Below, in pieces: positions 2,624 through 14,761 of a stretch of DNA of 32,000 nt (its first letter is position 1; each line of letters begins with the position of its first letter). This DNA is from Mycobacterium sp. Marseille-P9652. GTDB taxonomy: Bacteria; Actinomycetota; Actinomycetes; Mycobacteriales; Mycobacteriaceae. A program made the translations under genes and the position numbers. The DNA is taken from positions 38,562-70,561 of the forward strand of contig NZ_CACRUY010000011.1 in assembly GCF_902652685.1 (NCBI RefSeq). The letters are read 5' to 3'. The notes under the pieces were generated by a model. The model was not told the origin of the DNA. It did not search any database and worked only from the letters and a program-made list of their open reading frames with translations.

Positions 2624-2720
2624 GCGGCGATCGCGAGCCAGCGCGTGTAACCCGCCCTCCTATCTGACAGCGACCGCCCCGACCGGCGGCGCCGTCGACC
2701 GATCAGGAGGTACACCCGCG

Positions 2721-3188
2721 ATGGACCCATCGCACGAGCCGCGCGCGGCCGGCATCCGCGACATCGAGGCGACTCGACGCCGCGTCCTCATCGGCTCGTG
2801 CGCGGTGGGCGCCGCGGCCGCGATCGCGGCGTGCGGACCGCAGCAGACCAAGGCGGCGCCCGGCGGCCCGACCGGGGGCGACCAGGCCGCCCCGCCGGCC
2901 GCACCGCAGGTGCTGCACCCCGCTGACGTCCCCGTCGGCGGCGGGGTCATCCTCGCCGACCAGGACACCGTCGTCACCCAGCCCCAACCCGGGCAGTTCC
3001 GGGCCTTCAGCGCCACCTGCACCCACCTCGGTTGTCAGGTCGAGCGGGTCAGCGACGGCACGATCAAGTGTCCGTGCCACGGCAGCCAGTACAGCGTCAC
3101 CGACGGTTCCGTCGTCCGCGGCCCCGCACCAAAACCGTTACCGGCCAGGACCGTGACGCTCAACAACGGCGCCCTGACGATCTCCTAG
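2721..3188 (+). CDS. Rieske [2Fe-2S] domain protein with twin-arginine signal and lipobox (predicted exported lipoprotein)
   Basis: ATG at 2721 is preceded by AGGAGG (2705-2710). Tat-like ATRRRVLIG motif, then a hydrophobic stretch ending in lipobox IAAC-G. Rieske cluster ligands are CTHLGC and CPCHGS. The track ORF begins earlier (2607), but that start has no RBS. Confidence 0.85.
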
Positions 3189-3222
3189 CGCCGATTCCCT
3201 TCCGAACGAGAGGCTTTCAGAC

Positions 3223-4155
3223 ATGCAACCCGAACGCGACCCGCGCGGCATGACGCGCCGGCAGCTGATCCGCCACACCGCGTGGTTCGGCGCGGCGGTG
3301 GGCTTCGCCGTCGCCGGCGGCGAAGTCATCTCGCACATGGCCGGCAGCGCCACGGCGACGGCACCGGTCCGGCCGACGCTGCGCTTCGCGCAAGTCAGCG
3401 ACAGCCACATCGGGTTCGACGGCAAGGCCAACCCCGACGTGGCCGGCTCCTTCGACCGGGCGATCGACCAGATCAACCACCTCGGCTACACCCCCGATTT
3501 CGTCATCCACACCGGCGACCTCACCCACCTGGCCACGCCGGAACAGTTCGACCAGGTCAAGCAGATGATGACGCGGTTCTCCACCCCGCACGTGTTCACC
3601 GTTCCCGGCGAACACGATTCCTCCGACGACGGGGGACGGCGGTACCTGCAGATGTTCGGGGCGGGCACCAAGGGCAACGGCTGGTACAGCTTCGACATCA
3701 ACGGCGTGCACGTGATCGCGCTGGTGAACTCGCTGAACCTCGACAAGCTCGGCCATCTCGGCAACGACCAGCTCGATTTCGTCCAGAAGGATGTTGCCGG
3801 GTTGTCGAGCGACACACCGATCATCGTCTTCAGCCACATCCCGTTGTTCGCCATGTACCCCCAGTGGGGATGGGGTACCGACGACGCCGGCCAGGCGCTG
3901 AGCTATCTGCGGCGATTCTCGTCGGTGACCTGCCTCAACGGCCATGTGCACCAACTGTTCTCGAAAACCGAGGGCAACATCACCTTCTACTGCGGCACCA
4001 CGACGGCCTACCCGCTGCCGCATCCCGGCGACGGGCCCGCGCCCAAGCCCGTGACGCTGCCGGCCGGGAAGCTGCACGACGCGCTGGGCATTCGTGAGGT
4101 CAGCTACGTCAAGGGCCGGCAGGCGCTGGCGCTGAAGGAGGAGAACCTGCAATGA
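3223..4155 (+). CDS. Calcineurin-like metallophosphoesterase with twin-arginine signal
   Basis: 310 aa. N-terminal MTRRQLIRHTAWFGAAVGFAVAGG is Tat-type. Metallophosphoesterase motifs are VSDSHIG (DxH), HTGDLTH (GD), VPGEHD (a GNHD variant), FSHIP and LNGHVH. Confidence 0.85.
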   Translation: MQPERDPRGMTRRQLIRHTAWFGAAVGFAVAGGEVISHMAGSATATAPVRPTLRFAQVSDSHIGFDGKANPDVAGSFDRAIDQINHLGYTPDFVIHTGDLTHLATPEQFDQVKQMMTRFSTPHVFTVPGEHDSSDDGGRRYLQMFGAGTKGNGWYSFDINGVHVIALVNSLNLDKLGHLGNDQLDFVQKDVAGLSSDTPIIVFSHIPLFAMYPQWGWGTDDAGQALSYLRRFSSVTCLNGHVHQLFSKTEGNITFYCGTTTAYPLPHPGDGPAPKPVTLPAGKLHDALGIREVSYVKGRQALALKEENLQ

Positions 4156-4562
4156 GTTTCACCAACATGGCGCTGCGGGCCGGGCTCGCGATCACGCTCG
4201 CGGCCAGCGGTGTCGACCACGCCTACCTGTACCTGGACGGGTACCGCAATGTCCCGGTCGTGGGATTCGGCTTCCTCGCGCAGGCCAGCGTGTTCTGCGC
4301 GCTCGCACTCCTCATCGCGGTCGGCGGGCCCGACTGGCTTGTGTGGGCCGCGGGCCTGCTGGCCGCCGGCGCGCTGGGTGCGTTCGTGCTGTCGCGCACC
4401 GTCGGGTTGTTCGGCTTCGTCGAGCACGGGTGGGAGCCCGCGCCGCATCCCGCGATCAGCGTCCTCACCGAGGCGGCGACCGTCGCGCTGTGCCTGGCGT
4501 GGGTGTTCCGTCACCGGGTGCCGCGCACCGCGGCCGCCACGGCCGGGGCCGCTTCGCTCTGA
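4152..4562 (+). CDS. Small integral membrane protein (about 4 TM helices), function unknown
   Basis: 136 aa. The ATG overlaps the upstream stop (ATGA at 4152-4155). There are four hydrophobic segments (LAITLAASGV, VVGFGFLAQASVFCALALLIAV, LVWAAGLLAAGALGAFVL, ISVLTEAATVALCLAWVF). The frame has high GC3. Confidence 0.6.
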   Translation: MSFTNMALRAGLAITLAASGVDHAYLYLDGYRNVPVVGFGFLAQASVFCALALLIAVGGPDWLVWAAGLLAAGALGAFVLSRTVGLFGFVEHGWEPAPHPAISVLTEAATVALCLAWVFRHRVPRTAAATAGAASL

Positions 4563-6084: not shown

Positions 6085-6453
6085 TCAGCCGGCGGCCCAC
6101 TGCGTGGCGCGGTCGAGTTCGTCGAGCCCGAAGACGCGGATCTCGCCCGGCACGATCCACGCCAGCGCGTGCAGGGTATGGGCGATCCACTCCTTGTCGG
6201 TGACGACCGCGATCCGCTTGAACGCCGAGTGATGCGGCCAGACGGTGCCGAAGCCGAGCTTCAGGTCCTCGAGGAGGCCGCCGGGCCCGAAGCCCTCGTA
6301 GTCGCCGGCGATGACCTCCACGATCCGGATCTCCCCGGTTTTGAGCAGATCCGTCAGGGCGGGTTCGAGTTCGCGCAGTTCGTCACCGCGCAACCGGCCG
6401 GACACGCGGATGCCGATCAGGCCCGGGGGCATGTCGGGCAGCAACTCGATCAT
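6085..6453 (-). CDS. STAS / SpoIIAA-like domain protein (DUF3478-type)
   Basis: Track ORF 6085..6822 trimmed to the ATG at 6453, whose codon overlaps the mmsB stop (ATGA). The 122-aa protein MIELLPDMPPGLIGIRVSGRL...FKRIAVVTDKEWI... resembles SpoIIAA-like STAS proteins. Confidence 0.7.
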   Translation of the reverse strand: MIELLPDMPPGLIGIRVSGRLRGDELRELEPALTDLLKTGEIRIVEVIAGDYEGFGPGGLLEDLKLGFGTVWPHHSAFKRIAVVTDKEWIAHTLHALAWIVPGEIRVFGLDELDRATQWAAG

Positions 6454-7337
6454 CAGCTGTCGCGCAGCATCTCGATGACCGCGCTGAAGTCCTTGTCGGC
6501 GTGGTCGGCGGCGAATTTGGCGTAGATGTCGGCGGCGTGGCTGCCCAGCGGCGCGGACGCACCCGTCGAGGCGACGGCATCCATCGCCAGGCCGAGGTCC
6601 TTGTTCATCAGGGCTGTCGCGAAGCCGGGCTTGAAGTCGTTGTTCGCGGGGGAGGTCGGCACCGGGCCGGGCACCGGGCAGTTGGTGTGCACCGCCCAGC
6701 AGTTGCCGGTCGCGCCGGTGATGACGTCGAAGAGGGCCTGGGCCGACAGGCCGAGCTTCTCGGCCAGGACGAACGCCTCGCCGACCGCGATCTGCTGCAC
6801 CGCCAGCACCATGTTGTTGCACACCTTGGCCGCCTGCCCCGCGCCGGCGCCGCCGCAGTGAATCACCTTGCCCGCCATGGGTTCCAGCACGGGGCGCGCG
6901 CGCTCCAGCGCCTCGTCGTCGCCGCCCACCATGAACGCCAGCGTGCCGGCCACCGCGCCCTTCACGCCGCCCGACACCGGTGCGTCGAGCTGCGCGACGC
7001 CGTGGGACTCCGCCAGGGCGTGCACCTCGCGGGCGTCGGTCACCGAGATCGTCGAGCTGTCGATGAACAGGGCACCCCGCTGGGCGGCGGGCAGGATGTC
7101 GGCGTAGCAGCGTTTGACCACGTCGCCGTTCGGCAGCATCGTGATGACGACGTCGGCGTCCTCGACCGCGTCGACGGCGCTGTCGAACACGGCGACGCCG
7201 TGGCCCGTCGCATCGGCGGCGGCCCGCGACACCGGATCGAAGCCGCGCACCATGTAGCCCGCTCGCACGAGGTTGGCCGACATGGGCGCGCCCATGTTGC
7301 CCAGCCCGAGGAAAGCAATGCTTGCAAGGTCAGCCAT
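6453..7337 (-). CDS. mmsB: 3-hydroxyisobutyrate dehydrogenase
   Basis: 294 aa. N-terminal Rossmann motif IAFLGLGNMGAPMSANL and the typical HIBADH core. It is the last enzyme gene of an mmsA-fadE9-mmsB arrangement, as in M. tuberculosis Rv0753c-Rv0751c (from memory). Confidence 0.9.
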   Translation of the reverse strand: MADLASIAFLGLGNMGAPMSANLVRAGYMVRGFDPVSRAAADATGHGVAVFDSAVDAVEDADVVITMLPNGDVVKRCYADILPAAQRGALFIDSSTISVTDAREVHALAESHGVAQLDAPVSGGVKGAVAGTLAFMVGGDDEALERARPVLEPMAGKVIHCGGAGAGQAAKVCNNMVLAVQQIAVGEAFVLAEKLGLSAQALFDVITGATGNCWAVHTNCPVPGPVPTSPANNDFKPGFATALMNKDLGLAMDAVASTGASAPLGSHAADIYAKFAADHADKDFSAVIEMLRDS

Positions 7338-7382
7338 GGTCGCCTTTCTCAGCGGTCGTCTTTCCTGAAGCGGGTGTCGCCC

Positions 7383-8543
7383 CTAAGCGGTGTTACGGAA
7401 CCGCCCGGCTTCGGCCCGACCGATGACCACCCGCATGATCTCGTTGGTCCCTTCCAGGATCCGATGGACCCGCAAGTCGCGGACGATCTTTTCCAGGCCG
7501 TACTCCCGCAGATAACCGTAGCCGCCGTGCAGCTGCAGCGCCTTGTCGGCAACCTCGAAGCACGTGTCGGTGACGTAGCGCTTGGCCATCGCGCACAGCT
7601 GCATCTTGTCCGAGTCGTCATTGTCCAGCGCGTTCGCCGCCCGCCAGAGCATCATCCGCGACGTCTCGAGTCCGGTGGCCATGTCGGCCAGCGCGAACCG
7701 CACCGTCGGCTCGTCGAGCAGGGGCGAGCCGAAGGCCTGCCGGTCGCGCACGTAGGCGCCCGCCTTCTCGAACGCGGCCTGGGCGCCGCCGAGCGAGCAG
7801 GCCGCGATGTTGAGCCGGCCGCCGTTGAGGCCGTTCATCGCGATGCCGAAACCGGCGCCCTCGCCGTCGGCGCCGCCGAGCATCGCGTCGGCGGGAACCC
7901 GCACGCCGTCGAGGATCACCTGGGCGGTCGGCTGCGCATGCCAGCCCATCTTCTCCTCGGGTGCGCCGAAACTCAGTCCCGGCGAACCCTTTTCGACGAC
8001 GAAGGCGGAGATGCCACGCGGGCCCTCACCGCCCGTTCGTGCCATCACCACGTAGACGTCCGAAGCACCCGCGCCGGAGATGAACTGCTTGACGCCGTCG
8101 AGCACGTAGTCGCCACCCTCCCGGACGGCGCGCGTGCCCAGCGCGGCGGCATCGGAGCCGGCGTTCGGCTCGGTGAGGCAGTAGCTGGCGATCACGTCCA
8201 TCGAGGCGAGCCGCGGAACCCAGGCCTTGCGTTGTTCCGGCGTGCCGAACGTGTCGATCATCCACGCGCACATGTTGTGGATCGACAGGAACGCCGCGAC
8301 CGTCGGGCAGGCGGTGGCCAGCTGCTCGAAGATGCGGACCCCGTCGAGGCGCCGCAGGCCGCTGCCGCCGACGTCCTCGCGGCAGTAGATCGCCGCCATG
8401 CCCAGCTCGGCGGACTCGCGCAACACGTCGGTGGGGAAGTGCTTGGTGGCGTCCCATTCCAGGGTGTGCGGCGCGAGGCGTTTCGCGGCGAACGCGGCGG
8501 CCGTCTCGGTGATGACGCGCTCGTCGTCGTTGAGGGTGAACAT
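7383..8543 (-). CDS. fadE9: Acyl-CoA dehydrogenase (isobutyryl-CoA dehydrogenase-like)
   Basis: 386 aa. ACAD motifs are CLTEPNAGSD, the FISGAG region and the C-terminal LQLHGGYGYLREYGLEKIVRDLRVHRILEGTNEIMR. It lies between mmsA and mmsB. Confidence 0.9.
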   Translation of the reverse strand: MFTLNDDERVITETAAAFAAKRLAPHTLEWDATKHFPTDVLRESAELGMAAIYCREDVGGSGLRRLDGVRIFEQLATACPTVAAFLSIHNMCAWMIDTFGTPEQRKAWVPRLASMDVIASYCLTEPNAGSDAAALGTRAVREGGDYVLDGVKQFISGAGASDVYVVMARTGGEGPRGISAFVVEKGSPGLSFGAPEEKMGWHAQPTAQVILDGVRVPADAMLGGADGEGAGFGIAMNGLNGGRLNIAACSLGGAQAAFEKAGAYVRDRQAFGSPLLDEPTVRFALADMATGLETSRMMLWRAANALDNDDSDKMQLCAMAKRYVTDTCFEVADKALQLHGGYGYLREYGLEKIVRDLRVHRILEGTNEIMRVVIGRAEAGRFRNTA

Positions 8544-8549
8544 ACTCGC

Positions 8550-10070
8550 CTAATTCATTGTGGGGATGACGAATTCAGCGCCGTCCTTGATGCCGGACGG
8601 CCACCGCGACGTCACCGTCTTGGTCTTGGTGTAGAACTGGATCGACGTGGGTCCGTGCTGGTTGAGGTCGCCGAAGCCGGAGCGCTTCCAGCCGCCGAAG
8701 GTGTGGTAGGCCACCGGAACCGGGATCGGCACGTTGACGCCGACCATGCCGACCTGCACGCGGGCGACGAAGTCGCGCGCGGTGTCGCCGTCGCGGGTGA
8801 ACACCGCGACCCCGTTGCCGTACTCGTGCTCGGACGGGAGCCGCAGCGCCTCCTCGTAGTCGTGCGCGCGGACGATGCACAGCACGGGACCGAAGATCTC
8901 GTCGGTGTAGATCGACATGTCCGGGGTGACGTGGTCGAACAGGGTGGGGCCGATGAAGAAGCCGCCCTCCAGGTTGGCGTCCCCGAAGGTCAGGTCGTCG
9001 CTGCGGCGTTCGCGTCCGTCGATGACGATCTCGGCCCCCGCGGCCACGCCCTGGTCGATGTAGTCGCGCACACGGTTCAGGGCGGCCTCGGTGACGAGTG
9101 GGCCGTAGTCGGCCTTGGGGTCCAGGCTGTGGCCCACGCGCAGGTTGTTGATCCGGTCGATGAGCCTGGCGCGCAAGCGTTCCGCGGTCTTCTCGCCGAC
9201 GGGCACCGCCACGCTGATCGCCATGCAGCGTTCGCCGGCGCTGCCGTAGCCGGCGCCGATCAGCGCGTCGACAGCCTGGTCCAGGTCGGCGTCGGGCATC
9301 ACGATCATGTGGTTCTTGGCGCCGCCGAAGCACTGCGACCGTTTGCCGTGGGCCGCCGCGCCGGAGTAGATGTACTGCGCGATGTCGGAACTCCCGACGA
9401 ACCCGACCGCCTGGATGTCGGGGTGCTCGAGGATGGCGTCGACGGCCTCCTTGTCGCCGTGCACCACCTGGAACACCCCGGGCGGCAGCCCCGCCTCCAA
9501 GAACAACTCGGCCAGCCGCACCGGCACCGACGGGTCGCGCTCGCTGGGCTTGAGGATGAACGCGTTCCCGCACGCCAGGGCGGGCCCGGCCTTCCAGAGC
9601 GGGATCATCGCCGGGAAGTTGAACGGGGTGATACCCGCGACCACTCCCAGGGGCTGGCGCAGCGAGTAGACGTCGATGCCGGGCCCGGCGCCCTCGGTGT
9701 ACTCGCCCTTGAGCAGGTGGGGGATCCCGACGCAGAACTCGATGACCTCGATGCCGCGCTGGATGTCGCCGCGCGCGTCGGCCAGCGTCTTGCCGTGCTC
9801 GAGCGACAACTGCTCGGCGAGCTCGTCAGCCGCGTCGTTGACCAGGTCGATGAAGCGCATCATGACGCGCGCCCGGCGCTGCGGATTCCATGCGGCCCAA
9901 CCCTTCTGGGCCTCGACGGCCGACGCCACCGCCGCGTCGATGTCGGCCTTGCCGGCCATCGGCACCTGCGCTTGCACCTGGCCGGTGCTGGGGTTGAAGA
10001 CGTCCGCCGTGCGGGTCGACCGGCCCGCGGTGCGCTCGCCGTCGATGAAGTGCGGGATCTGTGTGGTCAT
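8550..10070 (-). CDS. mmsA: Methylmalonate-semialdehyde dehydrogenase (CoA-acylating)
   Basis: Track ORF trimmed to the ATG at 10070 (MTTQIPHFIDGER), which has GAGGA 5 nt upstream. Aldehyde dehydrogenase fold with catalytic Cys in GSAGERCMA. The CoA-acylating subtype follows from context with mmsB and the ACAD. About 506 aa. Confidence 0.9.
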   Translation of the reverse strand: MTTQIPHFIDGERTAGRSTRTADVFNPSTGQVQAQVPMAGKADIDAAVASAVEAQKGWAAWNPQRRARVMMRFIDLVNDAADELAEQLSLEHGKTLADARGDIQRGIEVIEFCVGIPHLLKGEYTEGAGPGIDVYSLRQPLGVVAGITPFNFPAMIPLWKAGPALACGNAFILKPSERDPSVPVRLAELFLEAGLPPGVFQVVHGDKEAVDAILEHPDIQAVGFVGSSDIAQYIYSGAAAHGKRSQCFGGAKNHMIVMPDADLDQAVDALIGAGYGSAGERCMAISVAVPVGEKTAERLRARLIDRINNLRVGHSLDPKADYGPLVTEAALNRVRDYIDQGVAAGAEIVIDGRERRSDDLTFGDANLEGGFFIGPTLFDHVTPDMSIYTDEIFGPVLCIVRAHDYEEALRLPSEHEYGNGVAVFTRDGDTARDFVARVQVGMVGVNVPIPVPVAYHTFGGWKRSGFGDLNQHGPTSIQFYTKTKTVTSRWPSGIKDGAEFVIPTMN

Positions 10071-10106
10071 CGGTGTCCTCGGGTGAGTTTCGGGGGATAC
10101 TTGCAT

Positions 10107-10135
10107 ATCCTAGTAACTGCCCCCGGCAGTGGCAA
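10107..10135 (-). promoter_or_regulatory. Candidate SigA-type promoter of the mmsA-fadE9-mmsB operon
   Basis: The minus strand reads TTGCCA (10135-10130), a 17-nt spacer, then TAGGAT (10112-10107). The -10 element fits TANNNT and lies about 37 nt upstream of the mmsA ATG. The spacer contains inverted repeat CTGCC-CCC-GGCAG (10117-10129). Confidence 0.3.
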
Positions 10136-10146
10136 GGAGGCCGCCG

Positions 10147-10467
10147 TCAGCCGCCGCCGTCGTTCCGCCACACCCCCCGCGCACGCATGTCGTCCTCGGC
10201 CGCCTGGCATTGGGCCGCCAGCTGCCGGTACGCCGCGGCGTTGTCGGGGTTGCGGAACCGCTCGCCCGATCCGGCGGTGGCCAGCCGGATCAACTCCAGG
10301 ACGAACTGCAGCGACCGTCCGCTGCCCAGCGATTCGCCGATCGCGTTGACGACGTCACCGAACTCCAGGTCGTTGTTGCTCGCCGCGGCAAGACCGAGTG
10401 TCACGGCGGCGCGACGGGTGTCGTCGGGCCAGACGGACTCGTCGTGCGGGGGTATCACGCGTGACAT
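10147..10467 (-). CDS. Hypothetical protein (about 106 aa)
   Basis: ATG at 10467 (MSRVIPPHDESVW...). The track gives an upstream TTG at 10494. GC3 in this frame is very high, consistent with coding. I recognised no motif. Confidence 0.5.
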   Translation of the reverse strand: MSRVIPPHDESVWPDDTRRAAVTLGLAAASNNDLEFGDVVNAIGESLGSGRSLQFVLELIRLATAGSGERFRNPDNAAAYRQLAAQCQAAEDDMRARGVWRNDGGG

Positions 10468-10519: not shown

Positions 10520-11938
10520 ATGCAGACCATCGAGGCGGACTACCTGGTCGTCGGCGCGGGCGCCATGGGCATGGCGTTCCTCGACACGCTGGTGACCGAG
10601 ACCGGGGCCAGCGTGGTCGTGGTCGACCGCAACCACCAGCCGGGCGGCCACTGGACCATGGCCTACCCGTTCGTGCGGCTGCACCAGCCCTCGGCCTTCT
10701 ACGGCGTGAGCTCGCTGGACCTGGGTAGCGGGACCATCGACGAAACGGGCTGGAACGCGGGCCTTTTCGAGCTCGCCACGTCCGGTGAGGTATGCGCGTA
10801 CTACGACCGGGTCATGCGCCGGCAGCTCCTGCCGACCGGCCGGGTGCGCTACTTCCCGATGAGCGAATACCGCGGCGACGGCCGCTTCACCACGCTGGGC
10901 GGCGGCGACTACACCGTCGACGTGACGCGCCGCATCGTCGACGCCACCTACATGCGGGTCAGCGTCCCCGCGATGCGGCCGCCGCCCTATCCGGTGGCGC
11001 CCGGCGTGGAGTGCGTGGCACCGAACGAGCTGCCGCGGCTGGGCCCGCGCGACCGGTACGTCATCGTCGGCGCCGGCAAGACCGGCATCGACACATGCCT
11101 GTGGCTGCTGGCCCACGGGGTGGCACCCGAACGGCTGACCTGGATCATGCCGCGCGACGCGTGGCTGCTCGACCGGGCGACGATCCAGCCCGGACCCCTC
11201 TTCGCCGACACGATCAAGGCCAATTTCACCGCGCAATTGGAGGCCATCCGGGACGCGGTCTCGCTCGATGACCTGTTCGCGCGGCTCGAGGACGGCGGTG
11301 TCCTGCTGCGCCTGGACGGCACGGTCCGGCCCACCATGTACCGCTGCGCGACCGTCACCCGCGCGGAGCTCGAGCAGCTGCGACGCATCCCCGGCGTCGT
11401 GCGGATGGGTCACGTGCGCCGCGTCGAAATCGACAGGTGCGTGCTCGACGGTGGTGAGGTGGCGTCCGGCGGCTCGGCGCTCTATGTCGACTGCACCGCC
11501 GACGGGGCCGAGAAGGTGCCCGCGACACCGGTTTTCGAGGACCGGCGGATCACGCTGCAGAGCGTGCGTGGTTGCCAGCAGGTGTTCAGCGCCGCGTTGA
11601 TCGCTCACGTCGAGGCGAACTACCCCGACGATTCGGCGCGCAATGAGCTGTGTCGGCCCGTCGAGCACCCCGATACCGACCGGGACTGGGCGCGCAACAC
11701 GCTGGCCGACTACCGCAACCAGCTGCGGTGGTTCGACGACGAGGACCTGACGGCGTGGCTGGCCGGGACGCGCCTGGACCTGTTCGGGCACCTGATCGGG
11801 CACCGGCTGGCGGGGGCGTCGGCGAAGCCGCGGGTGCGCGAACGCCTGATGAGCATGACCAGGACGGCGCTCACCGCCACCGCGGAGAAGCTGGAGCGGC
11901 TGCTCGCCGACGACACGTGTAACCCGACCCGATATTGA
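10520..11938 (+). CDS. FAD/NAD(P)-binding oxidoreductase with two dinucleotide-binding motifs (flavin monooxygenase-like)
   Basis: 472 aa. N-terminal DYLVVGAGAMGMAF...VVVVDR...PGGHW (FAD GxGxxG) and a second Rossmann motif YVIVGAGKTGID near residue 190. Confidence 0.8.
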   Translation: MQTIEADYLVVGAGAMGMAFLDTLVTETGASVVVVDRNHQPGGHWTMAYPFVRLHQPSAFYGVSSLDLGSGTIDETGWNAGLFELATSGEVCAYYDRVMRRQLLPTGRVRYFPMSEYRGDGRFTTLGGGDYTVDVTRRIVDATYMRVSVPAMRPPPYPVAPGVECVAPNELPRLGPRDRYVIVGAGKTGIDTCLWLLAHGVAPERLTWIMPRDAWLLDRATIQPGPLFADTIKANFTAQLEAIRDAVSLDDLFARLEDGGVLLRLDGTVRPTMYRCATVTRAELEQLRRIPGVVRMGHVRRVEIDRCVLDGGEVASGGSALYVDCTADGAEKVPATPVFEDRRITLQSVRGCQQVFSAALIAHVEANYPDDSARNELCRPVEHPDTDRDWARNTLADYRNQLRWFDDEDLTAWLAGTRLDLFGHLIGHRLAGASAKPRVRERLMSMTRTALTATAEKLERLLADDTCNPTRY

Positions 11939-11953
11939 TCGGGTGGAGGACAA

Positions 11954-12514
11954 GTGACCGCACGCAACGAACCCGTCGGCCCGCGACCGCTGCGCGCGGT
12001 GCCCGACCACGGCTCTTCGGGGAGCGACAGCGGCTATCCCGACTGGGAGGCCGTGTACGCCGACAACGCGGGCTGGGTGTACCGCACGCTGTTCGCGCGT
12101 GTCGGCAACCGGGCCGACGCCGAGGACCTCACCGCCGAGGTGTTCCTCGCGGCGTTGCGACCGCTGCGCCTGACGGCGAGCACCGGGGAGGTGCGCGCTT
12201 ATCTGCGCGCGACCGCCCGCACGGTGCTGGCCGCGCACTGGCGCGAGACCCTGGGACGGGAGATAACCTCGATCGACGACATCGAGCAGCCCCCCGATAG
12301 CGAGGAAGCGATCAGCACCGCGCCCCAGCGTGTCGCCCGGGTCCTGGACAACCTGCCCGACCGATACCGCCGGATCCTGGAATTGAGGTTCCTGCAAGGC
12401 AGTTCGATCAAGGAGTCGGCCACGGAACTCGGCATCAGCGTCGCCAACGCCAAGGTGCTCCAGCACCGCGCCCTGAGGCTGGCGGCCCAGGTCAACGACG
12501 GAGGTGCGCCATGA
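11954..12514 (+). CDS. ECF (group 4) sigma-70 family RNA polymerase sigma factor
   Basis: 186 aa. GTG at 11954 is preceded by GGAGGA (11945-11950). Region 2 reads VYRTLFARVGNRADAEDLTAEVFLAAL. Region 4 HTH reads LPDRYRRILELRFLQGSSIKESATELGISVANAKVLQHRALRRL-like. Confidence 0.85.
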   Translation: MTARNEPVGPRPLRAVPDHGSSGSDSGYPDWEAVYADNAGWVYRTLFARVGNRADAEDLTAEVFLAALRPLRLTASTGEVRAYLRATARTVLAAHWRETLGREITSIDDIEQPPDSEEAISTAPQRVARVLDNLPDRYRRILELRFLQGSSIKESATELGISVANAKVLQHRALRLAAQVNDGGAP

Positions 12515-13209
12515 ACGCGCGTGGATTGCGGCGCTACGTCGACGACCTGCTGCGGGGCCGGCGCCCCAAGGCGTTCGAGCCGGACGACTTCGAGGCGGCA
12601 CAGATTCGCACCGCGATCGAGATGCGCGCGGCCCGTCCCGGGCCCGACCCGGACGCCGCGCCGCGGCAGGAGTTCCTCACCGACCTGCACCGTCGCCTCG
12701 CGGAGCAGATGTCCGGTCCCACAACCGAACCGGCGTCCGCGTACAGCAGTACACGCCGCCAGGTCATCGTCGGCACGTCGGCGGCCGCTGCCGCCGCCGT
12801 CGCGGCGGTGTCGATCGACCGGGCCGTGATTGGTGCCACCACCGTACGCTCCGATGTCGCGGCCGGGCAGTTGACGCCCAGCGACGGAAGCTGGCAGCGC
12901 GTCGCCGCCAGCTCGGACGTGCCCGACGGGGGCATGCATGCCTTCGATCTCGGATCGGTCAACGGCTTCGTCCGTCGTGTAGACGGCAAGCTCGAGGCCG
13001 TGTCGGGTGTCTGCACTCACCAGGGATGCCGGCTGTGGTTCGATGCGCCGGACAACAGGTTGCGCTGCCCGTGCCACTCGACATCCTTCTCGCCGACCGG
13101 CCAGGTGGTCACCCATCAGCTGCCGATCGCGCCGAAGCCGTTGCCCACGTTGATGGTTCGCGAGGCCAACGGTGCTGTCGAGGTGTTCGCCCCGGTCAAG
13201 GAGACGTAG
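12511..13209 (+). CDS. Membrane-anchored Rieske [2Fe-2S] domain protein; candidate anti-sigma factor
   Basis: 232 aa. The ATG overlaps the sigma gene stop (ATGA 12511-12514). It has a roughly 75-aa charged N-terminal domain, then an internal twin-arginine-like STRRQVIVGTSAAAAAAVAAVSI anchor, then a C-terminal Rieske domain (CTHQGC ... CPCHST). The anti-sigma role is inferred from position only. Confidence 0.8.
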   Translation: MNARGLRRYVDDLLRGRRPKAFEPDDFEAAQIRTAIEMRAARPGPDPDAAPRQEFLTDLHRRLAEQMSGPTTEPASAYSSTRRQVIVGTSAAAAAAVAAVSIDRAVIGATTVRSDVAAGQLTPSDGSWQRVAASSDVPDGGMHAFDLGSVNGFVRRVDGKLEAVSGVCTHQGCRLWFDAPDNRLRCPCHSTSFSPTGQVVTHQLPIAPKPLPTLMVREANGAVEVFAPVKET

Positions 13210-13216
13210 CCCGGGC

Positions 13217-14653
13217 TCAGGTATCGAAAACTATTGTGCCGTAACCGGTCGGGCTGTACGACAGGTAGATCGGGTGCTGCAGGAACGGGGCGATCCCGGT
13301 GTTGAAGAACCCGCCGAGGGTGCTCGACGAGATGGCCGTCTGTTGGGAACCGACGGTGGTGGTGTACAGCAACTTGCTGCCGTCGCTGGTGTAGACGGCC
13401 ACGCTGGTTCCGGCGGGCAGGTATCCACCGGCGTTCGGCGGCCCGAGGTTGTCGGGCACCGTCCCGCCCAGCCCGCCGGAATCGATGTACGCGCCGGTGG
13501 TCTGCTGCAGTCCGCCGCCGTTGATCCGGATGTCCAGGGTGGTGATCGGCGCCCCGGTCACCGACGCGTATGGGGTCAGCGGGTTGGGGCCGAATTGCAC
13601 CGTTCCCGTGGGCTCGTCAATCAGCAGACCCTGACCGAAGGCGCCCGGCAATGCGGTCACGGGACTGCTCGCGGGACCGTAACCATTGGCCCCCACACCC
13701 AGAATGGCGGGCGCCTGGGATGCGGGATAGGAAAAGACGAAATTCTGGGTTATCGACGTGACGACGGCAATAGTGGTCGGCTGGGTGACAAGGCCGTTTC
13801 CGAAATTCACCGTTGTCGTGTACGTGTTGTAGTTCTCGACGAGCAAATTCCCCAATCCGCCGTAGGTGACGGACCCTTGCCCGGTGGGAGCGCCGAGGCT
13901 CGCGAGATTGACGTCCTGCGGGGGAAGGATCAGACCCCGTGATCCGGTGTCGACAATGACCGGCACGCTCGGTCCGCCGCCCACCGAGACGTTGACGTAC
14001 AGGTCCTGACCCTGCAGTTGCAGGGGCACGGTGGCCAACCCCAGCGGGCCGCTGGCCCCGGGGGACCCGAAAAGGCCGCCGGGGCCGCCGGGACCGCCGA
14101 GCGCGGCCGGGCCACCGGCCCCGCCGGGGCCGCCGTTGCCGATCAACCCCGCGGGCCCGCCGGCGCCTCCGGGCGCCCCGGCGGCGGTGCTGTTTCCGCC
14201 ATGGCCGCCGTTGCCCATCAGGATGCCGCCCGGACCACCGGGCGTGCCGACCCCCCGGGCGTTGGTGACGCCGTCGGCGCCGTCACCGATCAGCGGCCGC
14301 CCCAAAAGCATGTTGGTCGGCGCGTTCACGACCGCGAGGATGTCCTGCTGCAGGATCTGCAGCGGGTCGGCGCTGGCGGCCTCGGTCGCCGCGTACATCC
14401 CGGCGCCCGAATTCAGTGCCTGGACGAATTGCGTGTGCATTGTGGCGGCCTGAACGGCCAGCGCCTGATAAGAGGACGCGTACGCGGAAAAGATCGTCTT
14501 GATGGCTCCCGATACCTCGTCAGCCCCCGCCGTGAGTATTTCGGTTGTCGGTGCGGCCGCCGCGGCGTGCGCCGCGCCAATCCACGACCCGATGTTCGCC
14601 ACTTTTGTCGCCGCGTCGGACACGAATTCCGGCGCAGTGATCACAAAAGACAC
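13217..14653 (-). CDS. PE-PGRS family protein with C-terminal pepsin-like aspartic protease domain (PecA / PE_PGRS35 type)
   Basis: 478 aa, GTG start at 14653 with GGGAAGAGG upstream. The PE domain is [10 protein letters not shown]...AAADEVS-like. A Gly-rich GGxGG linker covers residues about 121-205. Catalytic motifs are VIVDTGSRG (D235) and AYIDSGGLG (D391). Confidence 0.9.
14039..14293 (-). repeat. PGRS-type low-complexity GGC/GCC-rich coding repeat inside the PE gene
   Basis: Encodes [61 protein letters not shown]. The DNA is reiterated GGNCCNCCNGG units. Confidence 0.8.
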
Positions 14654-14714
14654 GCGACACCTCTTCCCGCAAAGAAGCAGTCGCCCCGATTGGAGGCAAT
14701 CGGAATGATAGGCC

Positions 14715-14736
14715 GAAATTAGCCGGAAATTAGCCG
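14715..14736. repeat. Perfect tandem direct repeat, 2 x 11 bp (GAAATTAGCCG)
   Basis: GAAATTAGCCG at 14715-14725 and again at 14726-14736. It lies in the relatively AT-rich 108-bp spacer upstream of the PE gene start and downstream of rmlC. Confidence 0.9.
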
Positions 14737-14761
14737 TTTTCGGTTGCGCGTCTATTCAGGG

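Follow-up and report, generated by a model that had tools for sequence, protein, structure and literature searches.

A candidate anti-sigma factor with a Rieske iron-sulfur domain encoded behind an ECF sigma factor gene in Mycobacterium

The mycobacterial anti-sigma factors RskA, RslA, RsmA and RsdA are single-pass membrane proteins of class I or of the zinc-associated anti-sigma (ZAS) type and are cleaved by the site-2 protease Rip1. To our knowledge, signal perception by the anti-sigma factors of extracytoplasmic function (ECF) sigma factors is known for only a few types of sensor. An anti-sigma factor with a [2Fe-2S] cluster is RsmA of Streptomyces coelicolor, which controls sigma-M; it is soluble, cytoplasmic and kinase-like (RsbW-type), and its partner is a group-3 sigma factor. 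In the actinobacterial Rieske protein QcrA, the twin arginine is not at the extreme N-terminus and membrane insertion depends on twin-arginine translocation (Tat). RsbN is a single-pass protein with a cytoplasmic three-helix anti-sigma domain of class III, the sequence of which is unlike that of other anti-sigma factors (PMC6101532), and its long third helix is clamped between sigma2 and sigma4 (PMC6101532, PDB 6DXO). Here we describe a 32,000-nucleotide stretch of DNA from Mycobacterium sp. Marseille-P9652 (contig NZ_CACRUY010000011.1, positions 38,562 to 70,561; hereafter the window), in which an ECF sigma factor gene is followed by the gene of a membrane-anchored Rieske protein (hereafter the partner). 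Based on comparative analysis, we propose, with a probability of about 0.7, that the two encode an ECF sigma factor and its single-pass anti-sigma factor, in which a Tat-exported iron-sulfur domain would act as sensor and provide a link to copper and redox conditions in the cell envelope.

The sigma factor and its Rieske partner

Pfam analysis of the sigma protein identified Sigma70_r2 (residues 35-97) and Sigma70_r4_2 (residues 126-175) and no other domain. The presence of regions 2 and 4 only, without region 3 or region 1.1, identifies it as an ECF-type (group 4) sigma factor, and its score with the NCBIfam model TIGR02937 was above the cut-off (64.5 bits, cut-off 42.9). TIGR02952, the model of the BldN family (ECF121), was the best of many sub-threshold NCBIfam matches; with 67.5 bits against a cut-off of 206.45, the protein falls outside that family. 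The nearest solved relative in a PDB search was sigma-BldN (6dxo_A), to which both sigma2 and sigma4 were matched.

The ATG of the partner gene (12511-12513) overlaps the TGA stop codon of the sigma gene (12512-12514), and the two genes share four nucleotides (ATGA). An earlier interpretation made from the DNA letters alone, here called the sequence-only reading, had pointed to this overlap; we find it at the same place in the window and again in 76 of 80 Mycobacterium loci, which puts it beyond chance. The same reading had described the partner as a charged N-terminal part followed by an internal twin-arginine anchor and a Rieske domain with all four ligands, and this architecture was borne out, with the Rieske domain identified by Pfam as PF00355 (residues 127-201, E-value 1e-15, 57.8 bits against a cut-off of 20.3). 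The ligands are C168 and H170 in CTHQGC, together with C186 and H189 in CPCHST, and C173 and C188 form the disulfide pair. All six residues are invariant in an alignment of 25 members of the family. An AlphaFold model based on this 25-sequence alignment had a predicted local distance difference test (pLDDT) score of 94-98 in the Rieske domain, for which the best Foldseek matches were the soluble 8hn2 (E-value 6e-10), 9rk4, 5cxm and the arsenite oxidase subunit AioB. Scores far below the NCBIfam cut-offs for QcrA (25.7 bits against 275) and PetC (34.7 bits against 250) show that the partner is not a respiratory Rieske subunit, and no cytochrome genes were found in the loci compared.

The sole hydrophobic stretch of the partner, STRRQVIVGTSAAAAAAVAAV at residues 80-100, has a mean Kyte-Doolittle value of 1.8 over 19 residues (84-102). 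It agrees in sequence with a Tat signal-anchor in that the pattern S/T-R-R-x-hydrophobic (STRRQVIV) precedes a weakly hydrophobic, alanine-rich h-region. Both R82 and R83 are invariant (25 of 25 sequences in the family alignment). The twin arginine lies inside the protein, 80 residues into the sequence, and not at the N-terminus as is usual for a Tat motif, and model confidence was low for the anchor helix. The invariant twin arginine and the anchor are consistent with Tat export, which would be expected because Rieske domains generally cross membranes in the folded state.

Conservation of the pairing and of the N-terminal domain

A genome scan using one genome per species resulted in 80 Mycobacterium loci with 70-82% identity, including those of M. 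colombiense, M. triplex, M. genavense, M. scrofulaceum, M. europaeum, M. interjectum and M. angelicum. A sigma factor gene was located directly upstream of the Rieske gene and on the same strand in 79 of them, encoding proteins 73-90% identical to the sigma factor in the window. Among these 80 loci, no other conserved regulator or anti-sigma candidate was found nearby. Since the genome scan returned close Mycobacterium loci only, breadth beyond the genus was assessed by a metagenome scan seeded with distant members of the family, in addition to protein searches. The metagenome scan gave 80 further loci, 50 with a full-length match and sufficient upstream DNA, and a script counted an adjacent sigma gene on the same strand in 46 of these 50. 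The four exceptions comprise a likely frameshift artefact (L087), a sigma gene ending approximately 100-200 nucleotides upstream (L156), a second Rieske copy beside the sigma gene (L097) and a sigma gene on the opposite strand in divergent orientation (L100). With the two near-adjacent cases included, the pairing holds in about 46-48 of the 50 loci. The most distant homologs were those of Ktedonobacteraceae (Chloroflexota), with 27-32% identity and a G+C content of 53%, encoded beside a sigma factor gene. They contain the N-terminal domain (…YIEELQAGR…RMAALFRSA.PE…PRPEFAAELQARLEQEL), a SRRALL anchor and CTHMGC/CPCH boxes. The sequence-only reading had made its proposal dependent on the pairing being conserved in other genomes, and it is strongly so, in two phyla.

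The topology of the partner is that of membrane anti-sigma factors, with three N-terminal helices carrying the hydrophobic residues F55, L59 and L63, one anchor and a C-terminal globular domain. In the cytoplasmic N-terminal domain (N-domain), AlphaFold predicted helices at residues 3-14, 26-41 and 53-68 with pLDDT values of approximately 66-91, and the alignment identified A35, P51, F55, L59 and L63 as invariant. The first cysteine of the protein is C168, which excludes a HxxxCxxC ZAS motif ahead of it, as had been noted previously. No Pfam family, zf-HC2, RskA and RsdA included, was matched by residues 1-87 at E-values up to 5, and no NCBIfam family was matched either. The N-domain likewise had no match in PDB, as a single sequence or as a 29-sequence profile (E-values up to 10), and a Foldseek search with the isolated N-domain model returned nothing informative.

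An exhaustive HMMER search of 1.84 billion representative proteins with residues 1-87 retrieved only 187 clusters, the majority of which are Rieske proteins or frameshifted fragments. A subfamily from metagenome-assembled genomes of Acidimicrobiales (P0222, P0224, P0241, P0248 and P0250) combines the N-domain and anchor with a different C-terminal domain, which had no Pfam match and no Rieske-type Cys/His motifs. These paralogues showed weak matches to the NCBIfam anti-sigma factor models NF052375 (down to 2e-8) and PRK13920, and their genes overlap a preceding ECF sigma factor gene by four nucleotides. The adjacent sigma factor is 58% identical to the one in the window, and the likeness between the window partner and the non-Rieske paralogue is limited to the first 66 residues (44% identity). 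The N-domain has thus stayed with the sigma clade through a change of outer domain, as one would expect if a sigma-binding module were joined to interchangeable sensors. This inheritance with the sigma factor, independent of the sensor domain, is the strongest evidence, of a comparative kind, pointing to an anti-sigma role of the partner. The earlier interpretation is supported in part. Its assignment of the partner as an anti-sigma factor gains independent support, as the N-domain travels with the sigma clade even where the Rieske domain is missing and no other candidate is encoded nearby; this support does not extend to the further idea that the iron, oxygen or redox state of the cluster controls sigma release.

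Promoter-like motif, putative target operon and neighbouring genes

A promoter-like motif overlaps the last codons and the stop codon (11936-11938) of the oxidoreductase gene upstream of the sigma gene (Table 1). Transcription is predicted to start at approximately position 11943, ahead of a Shine-Dalgarno sequence (GGAGG, 11945-11949). GTGTAACCCGnnCCGATATTGATCGG or a close variant is located directly upstream of the sigma start in all of the approximately 79 Mycobacterium loci, whether or not an oxidoreductase gene precedes it, indicating that the sigma/Rieske operon has its own promoter. The oxidoreductase gene was rejected as a member of the operon, since it is full-length in only about 45 of the 80 Mycobacterium loci and the conserved motif lies between it and the sigma gene. 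For the second motif copy in the window, the predicted start is at approximately position 2671, and a Shine-Dalgarno sequence (AGGAGG) precedes the ATG at 2721, the motif lying 57 nucleotides upstream of the gene. These two matches compare with 0.05 expected by chance in the window. Two other copies, both on the minus strand, were rejected, one (24961) for want of a TA element and the other (22902) for being antisense to the ribosomal protein genes rpsK/rpsD. Most relatives carry TGTAACCC-N6-CTATCT behind the Rieske gene and ahead of a lipoprotein gene. The motif was also found in other Actinomycetota loci, in the loci of the non-Rieske paralogues (both before the sigma operon and before the gene that comes next) and, as TGTAAC-N7-CGTA(G/A)T, ahead of the sigma genes of Ktedonobacteraceae.

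The gene behind the motif in relatives encodes a cupredoxin lipoprotein of the plastocyanin/azurin family (PF00127, PF13473) with the His/Cys/His/Met pattern of a type-1 copper site as judged by eye; at least 76 of the 80 genome loci have it at this position. Next come genes for a metallophosphoesterase with a Tat signal, found there in 93 loci, and for a small membrane protein, conserved in 83. This target operon is directly behind the Rieske gene in most relatives; in the window, a PE-PGRS gene takes that site (13210-14760) and no cupredoxin gene is present. The corresponding operon (2646-4562) is found 9 kb upstream of the sigma gene, behind a MarR gene (2120-2623), and the slot of the cupredoxin is filled by a second Rieske protein. 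The sequence-only reading had recorded the latter as a Tat-lipoprotein, in agreement with our identification of PF00355, a Tat-like motif (TRRRVLIG) and a lipobox (IAAC). The metallophosphoesterase of the window is 79% identical to the one encoded behind the cupredoxin in locus L093. The shared motif and operon genes indicate that the target operon has moved 9 kb in this genome, an iron-sulfur carrier having taken the place of its copper carrier. With the same promoter motif upstream, the second Rieske protein is probably part of the regulon and not there by coincidence.

Genes found behind the Rieske gene in distant loci include two for cupredoxins (L082, 4694-5889), those for a beta-propeller lipoprotein and a CopC-CopD fusion (L116, 2198-5452) and, in Ktedonobacteraceae, one for a YtkA-like protein (L152, 3329-3742). 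Judged by their predicted products, a copper theme appears to recur among the genes near the Rieske gene, and these neighbours point to copper at least as much as to iron or oxygen. From this we weakly infer that the system relates to envelope copper/redox homeostasis.

The position of start codons relative to the motif bears on its geometry. In 57 of 86 motif-bearing cupredoxin genes, an in-frame ATG or GTG is located 6 nucleotides (55 genes) or 7 nucleotides (2 genes) past the xxTAxx hexamer; these start codons open a normal lipoprotein signal peptide and leave no room for a Shine-Dalgarno sequence. Several other genes have a comparable spacing between motif and start codon. Such a distance suggests leaderless transcripts, with the hexamer at -10 and TGTAAC at approximately -26 to -21, about one helical turn nearer to -10 than the canonical ECF -35 element. 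A canonical reading, with GTAACC as the -35 element and a -10 element 16-17 nucleotides downstream (a weak GG(T/C)GA in some sites), is less favoured because the cupredoxin lipoprotein would then lose its conserved start codon, and the conserved Shine-Dalgarno sequence of the sigma gene would serve no purpose. The spacing may reflect recognition of a compact promoter by this sigma clade; TGTAAC may also be read by another factor, or the transcripts may not be leaderless after all.

Several loci had additional features. In L078, L100 and L107, the sigma gene is not co-directional with the Rieske gene, which is then preceded by a motif copy of its own; three copies are present in L078, one of them ahead of a gene for a small secreted protein. 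Six non-mycobacterial loci from metagenomes (L109, L119, L125, L126, L130 and L131) contain a second, shorter Rieske gene immediately behind the one with the N-domain and a second, more distant sigma-like open reading frame (ORF) just upstream of the cognate sigma gene; a Lipoprotein_15 (PF03640) gene then follows, preceded by TGTAACG-N6-ATATCT.

Other genes in the window are listed in Table 1. The PE-PGRS gene runs towards the Rieske gene from the other strand, and its end lies 8 nucleotides beyond that of the Rieske gene. The three minus-strand genes between 6453 and 10106 form a trio of the valine-catabolism type, and an ORF with a SpoIIAA-like domain is situated between them and the relocated target operon; it overlaps the call at 6453-7337 by approximately 370 nucleotides, and its 5' extent is uncertain. 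A 1282-codon ORF on the plus strand (6501-10349) without a family match was rejected as an antisense artefact of this trio.

Table 1. Positions of the features discussed, numbered from the first nucleotide of the window
Feature	Position	Strand	Remarks
Second copy of promoter-like motif	2646-2664	+	TGTAAC (2646-2651), N7, CCTATC (2659-2664)
Rieske Tat-lipoprotein, 155 aa	2721-3188	+	Probable regulon member; PF00355, E-value 3e-15
Tat-signal metallophosphoesterase, 310 aa	3223-4155	+	Probable regulon member; Pfam Metallophos
Small membrane protein, 136 aa	4152-4562	+	Last gene of target operon; no Pfam match
ORF with SpoIIAA-like (STAS-type) domain	6085-6822	-	PF11964, E-value 2e-21
3-Hydroxyisobutyrate dehydrogenase-like (mmsB-like) gene	6453-7337	-	
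Acyl-CoA dehydrogenase gene	7383-8543	-	
Aldehyde dehydrogenase gene	8550-10106	-	
FAD/NAD(P)-binding oxidoreductase-like gene	10520-11938	+	Variable neighbour; sigma motif at or inside its 3' end
Promoter-like motif of sigma operon	11918-11936	+	TGTAAC (11918-11923), N7, GATATT (11931-11936)
ECF sigma factor gene	11954-12514	+	GTG start, 186 aa; BldN-like, outside the BldN family
Candidate anti-sigma factor gene	12511-13209	+	232 aa; N-domain, twin-arginine anchor and Rieske domain
Cytoplasmic N-domain	12511-12720	+	aa 1-70; candidate sigma-binding (anti-sigma) domain
Twin-arginine-like motif and signal-anchor	12745-12828	+	Internal; S-T-R82-R83-Q-V-I-V, then Ala/Gly-rich anchor (aa ~84-106)
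Rieske [2Fe-2S] domain	12868-13194	+	aa 120-228; minimal, predicted extracytoplasmic; bc1/b6f-type with disulfide cysteines
PE-PGRS protein, 478 aa	13217-14653	-	C-terminal aspartyl-peptidase-like domain PF20729, E-value 1e-94

Proposed mechanism, alternatives and comparison with known systems

In the mechanism we propose, the N-domain (70 residues, three helices) would hold the sigma factor at the membrane. The twin arginine and the weakly hydrophobic anchor would direct the partner to the Tat pathway, so that a folded, cluster-loaded Rieske domain would be placed outside the cytoplasm as the sensor module and stay anchored there by its uncleaved signal. A change in the Rieske domain would free the sigma factor: the cluster might be lost or damaged through copper, oxidants or a lack of iron, its redox state might change, or it might fail to be assembled, with failure of Tat export as a result. 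Release would most likely take place by regulated proteolysis, as with other mycobacterial membrane anti-sigma factors. From TGTAAC-N7-nnTA promoters, the freed sigma factor would then drive expression of its own operon and of a small regulon of envelope genes, which encode a one-electron carrier lipoprotein (a cupredoxin in most relatives, a Rieske protein here), a Tat metallophosphoesterase and a small membrane protein. Of this mechanism, we are least sure about the signal and about the sign of regulation.

Some observations weigh against this proposal. In a mirror-tree comparison, sigma distances correlated with those of the N-domain (0.96) and of the Rieske domain (0.97), and because all of them follow the species tree, the comparison singles out neither domain as the part that follows the sigma factor. 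In a few loci (L078, L100), the sigma and Rieske genes are not transcribed in the same direction. The spacing of the motif is shorter than in canonical ECF promoters, and it is by inference that the motif is taken to be read by this sigma factor. Furthermore, the adjacent target genes encode redox and copper proteins, and an electron-transfer role of the partner is therefore possible. The Rieske protein might accordingly be no more than a co-transcribed member of the regulon, a membrane-anchored one-electron carrier that would work together with the cupredoxin or Rieske lipoprotein and the metallophosphoesterase, with the sigma factor controlled in another way, for example at the transcriptional level or by an unlinked regulator. 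That a soluble Rieske lipoprotein can stand in for a cupredoxin and that the N-domain is unlike any known anti-sigma domain would both fit such a role. An electron carrier, however, has no obvious need for a conserved cytoplasmic helical domain of 70 residues, and this domain also occurs in non-Rieske proteins whose genes overlap those of the same sigma clade by four nucleotides. Tight translational coupling has moreover been kept across two phyla with no alternative regulator conserved at the locus, and we consider the carrier explanation unlikely.

The remaining alternatives concern the function of the N-domain. It might be a positive or dual sigma-binding module, comparable to a FecR-like 'pro-sigma' or tether, on which the activity or stability of the sigma factor would depend, with the Rieske domain still acting as the sensor. 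The comparative evidence provides for a partnership and not for the sign of regulation, and the N-domain belongs to no known inhibitory class; most single-pass partners encoded directly behind an ECF sigma factor are, however, inhibitors, and BldN, the closest characterised sigma factor, is inhibited by the three-helix membrane anti-sigma factor RsbN (PMC6101532), which makes a positive role distinctly improbable. We attach very little probability to the N-terminal extension being a Tat-related element, for docking of a chaperone or proofreading factor or for insertion of a cofactor protein, with no role towards the sigma factor. Its position directly ahead of the invariant twin arginine would suit such an element, and Rieske proteins are Tat substrates. 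Against this, the N-domain also precedes a non-Rieske C-terminal domain in the paralogues and follows a single sigma clade, and the other Rieske Tat-lipoprotein of the window does without it. The anti-sigma reading thus remains the one we prefer. A wider proposal, which we put forward tentatively and at somewhat less than even odds, is that of a family in two phyla in which Tat-inserted, Rieske-sensing anti-sigma factors with an unclassified three-helix domain and a BldN-like ECF clade with a compact promoter together govern envelope copper/redox carriers.

In full-text literature searches, reviews and ECF classifications, neither an anti-sigma factor with a Rieske domain nor a sigma/cupredoxin module of this kind was found described. 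The main text of the ECF classification by Casas-Pastor (2021) makes no mention of Rieske; the classification supplements, which were outside the search, may list the pairing among the genomic-context features of one of the ECF groups. In databases, the family goes by unspecific names ('Rieske (2Fe-2S) protein', 'cytochrome b6-f iron-sulfur subunit', 'hypothetical'). As predicted, the partner would combine three features that are unusual for a single-pass ECF anti-sigma factor, namely a sigma-binding domain of no known class, an anchor of the Tat type and a sensor domain with an iron-sulfur cluster. If the proposal is correct, an iron-sulfur centre on the outer face of the membrane would represent a new way of coupling the redox, copper or iron status of the envelope to transcription, and the partner would be the first anti-sigma factor to need folded export by Tat, linking control of a sigma factor to cofactor assembly. 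The N-domain would in that case constitute a further family of anti-sigma domains. The regulon offers a handle on the poorly understood extracytoplasmic handling of electrons and copper in non-tuberculous mycobacteria, and confirmation of the compact promoter would call into question the fixed -35/-10 geometry assumed for ECF sigma factors.

Among described systems, RsbN/sigma-BldN of Streptomyces venezuelae has a sigma factor that is the most similar solved one to that of the window, and it likewise pairs this with a single-pass partner having three helices (predicted here) and a signal presumed to be extracytoplasmic. The N-domain profile nevertheless has no sequence similarity to chain B of 6DXO or to any other PDB chain. 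In contrast to the partner described here, RsbN has an outer domain of unknown type with no reported cofactor, lacks a Tat-type twin-arginine anchor and has reported homologs only in Streptomyces.

RskA, RslA, RsmA and RsdA resemble the partner in gene order, with the anti-sigma gene following the sigma gene, and in having a cytoplasmic N-terminal domain, one membrane span and an extracytoplasmic C-terminal domain; the Ala/Gly-rich span of the partner is compatible with intramembrane proteolysis. The partner differs from them in lacking HxxxCxxC and any zf-HC2, RskA or RsdA match, in having three predicted helices in the N-domain where a class I anti-sigma domain has four, and in its cofactor-bearing sensor, which should need Tat and not Sec. 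S. coelicolor RsmA would share with it an anti-sigma activity dependent on an iron-sulfur cluster, as we propose here, although the centre predicted for the partner is of the His/Cys Rieske type and outside the membrane, and its sigma factor is of the ECF type. With QcrA and PetC, the partner has in common the Rieske fold, the CTHxGC and CPCH boxes, the disulfide and a twin arginine immediately before the last membrane span. In contrast to these subunits, it contains a minimal domain of 105 residues and a helical soluble N-domain in place of extra membrane spans, and its gene lies next to a sigma factor gene rather than with partner genes for cytochrome b or c.

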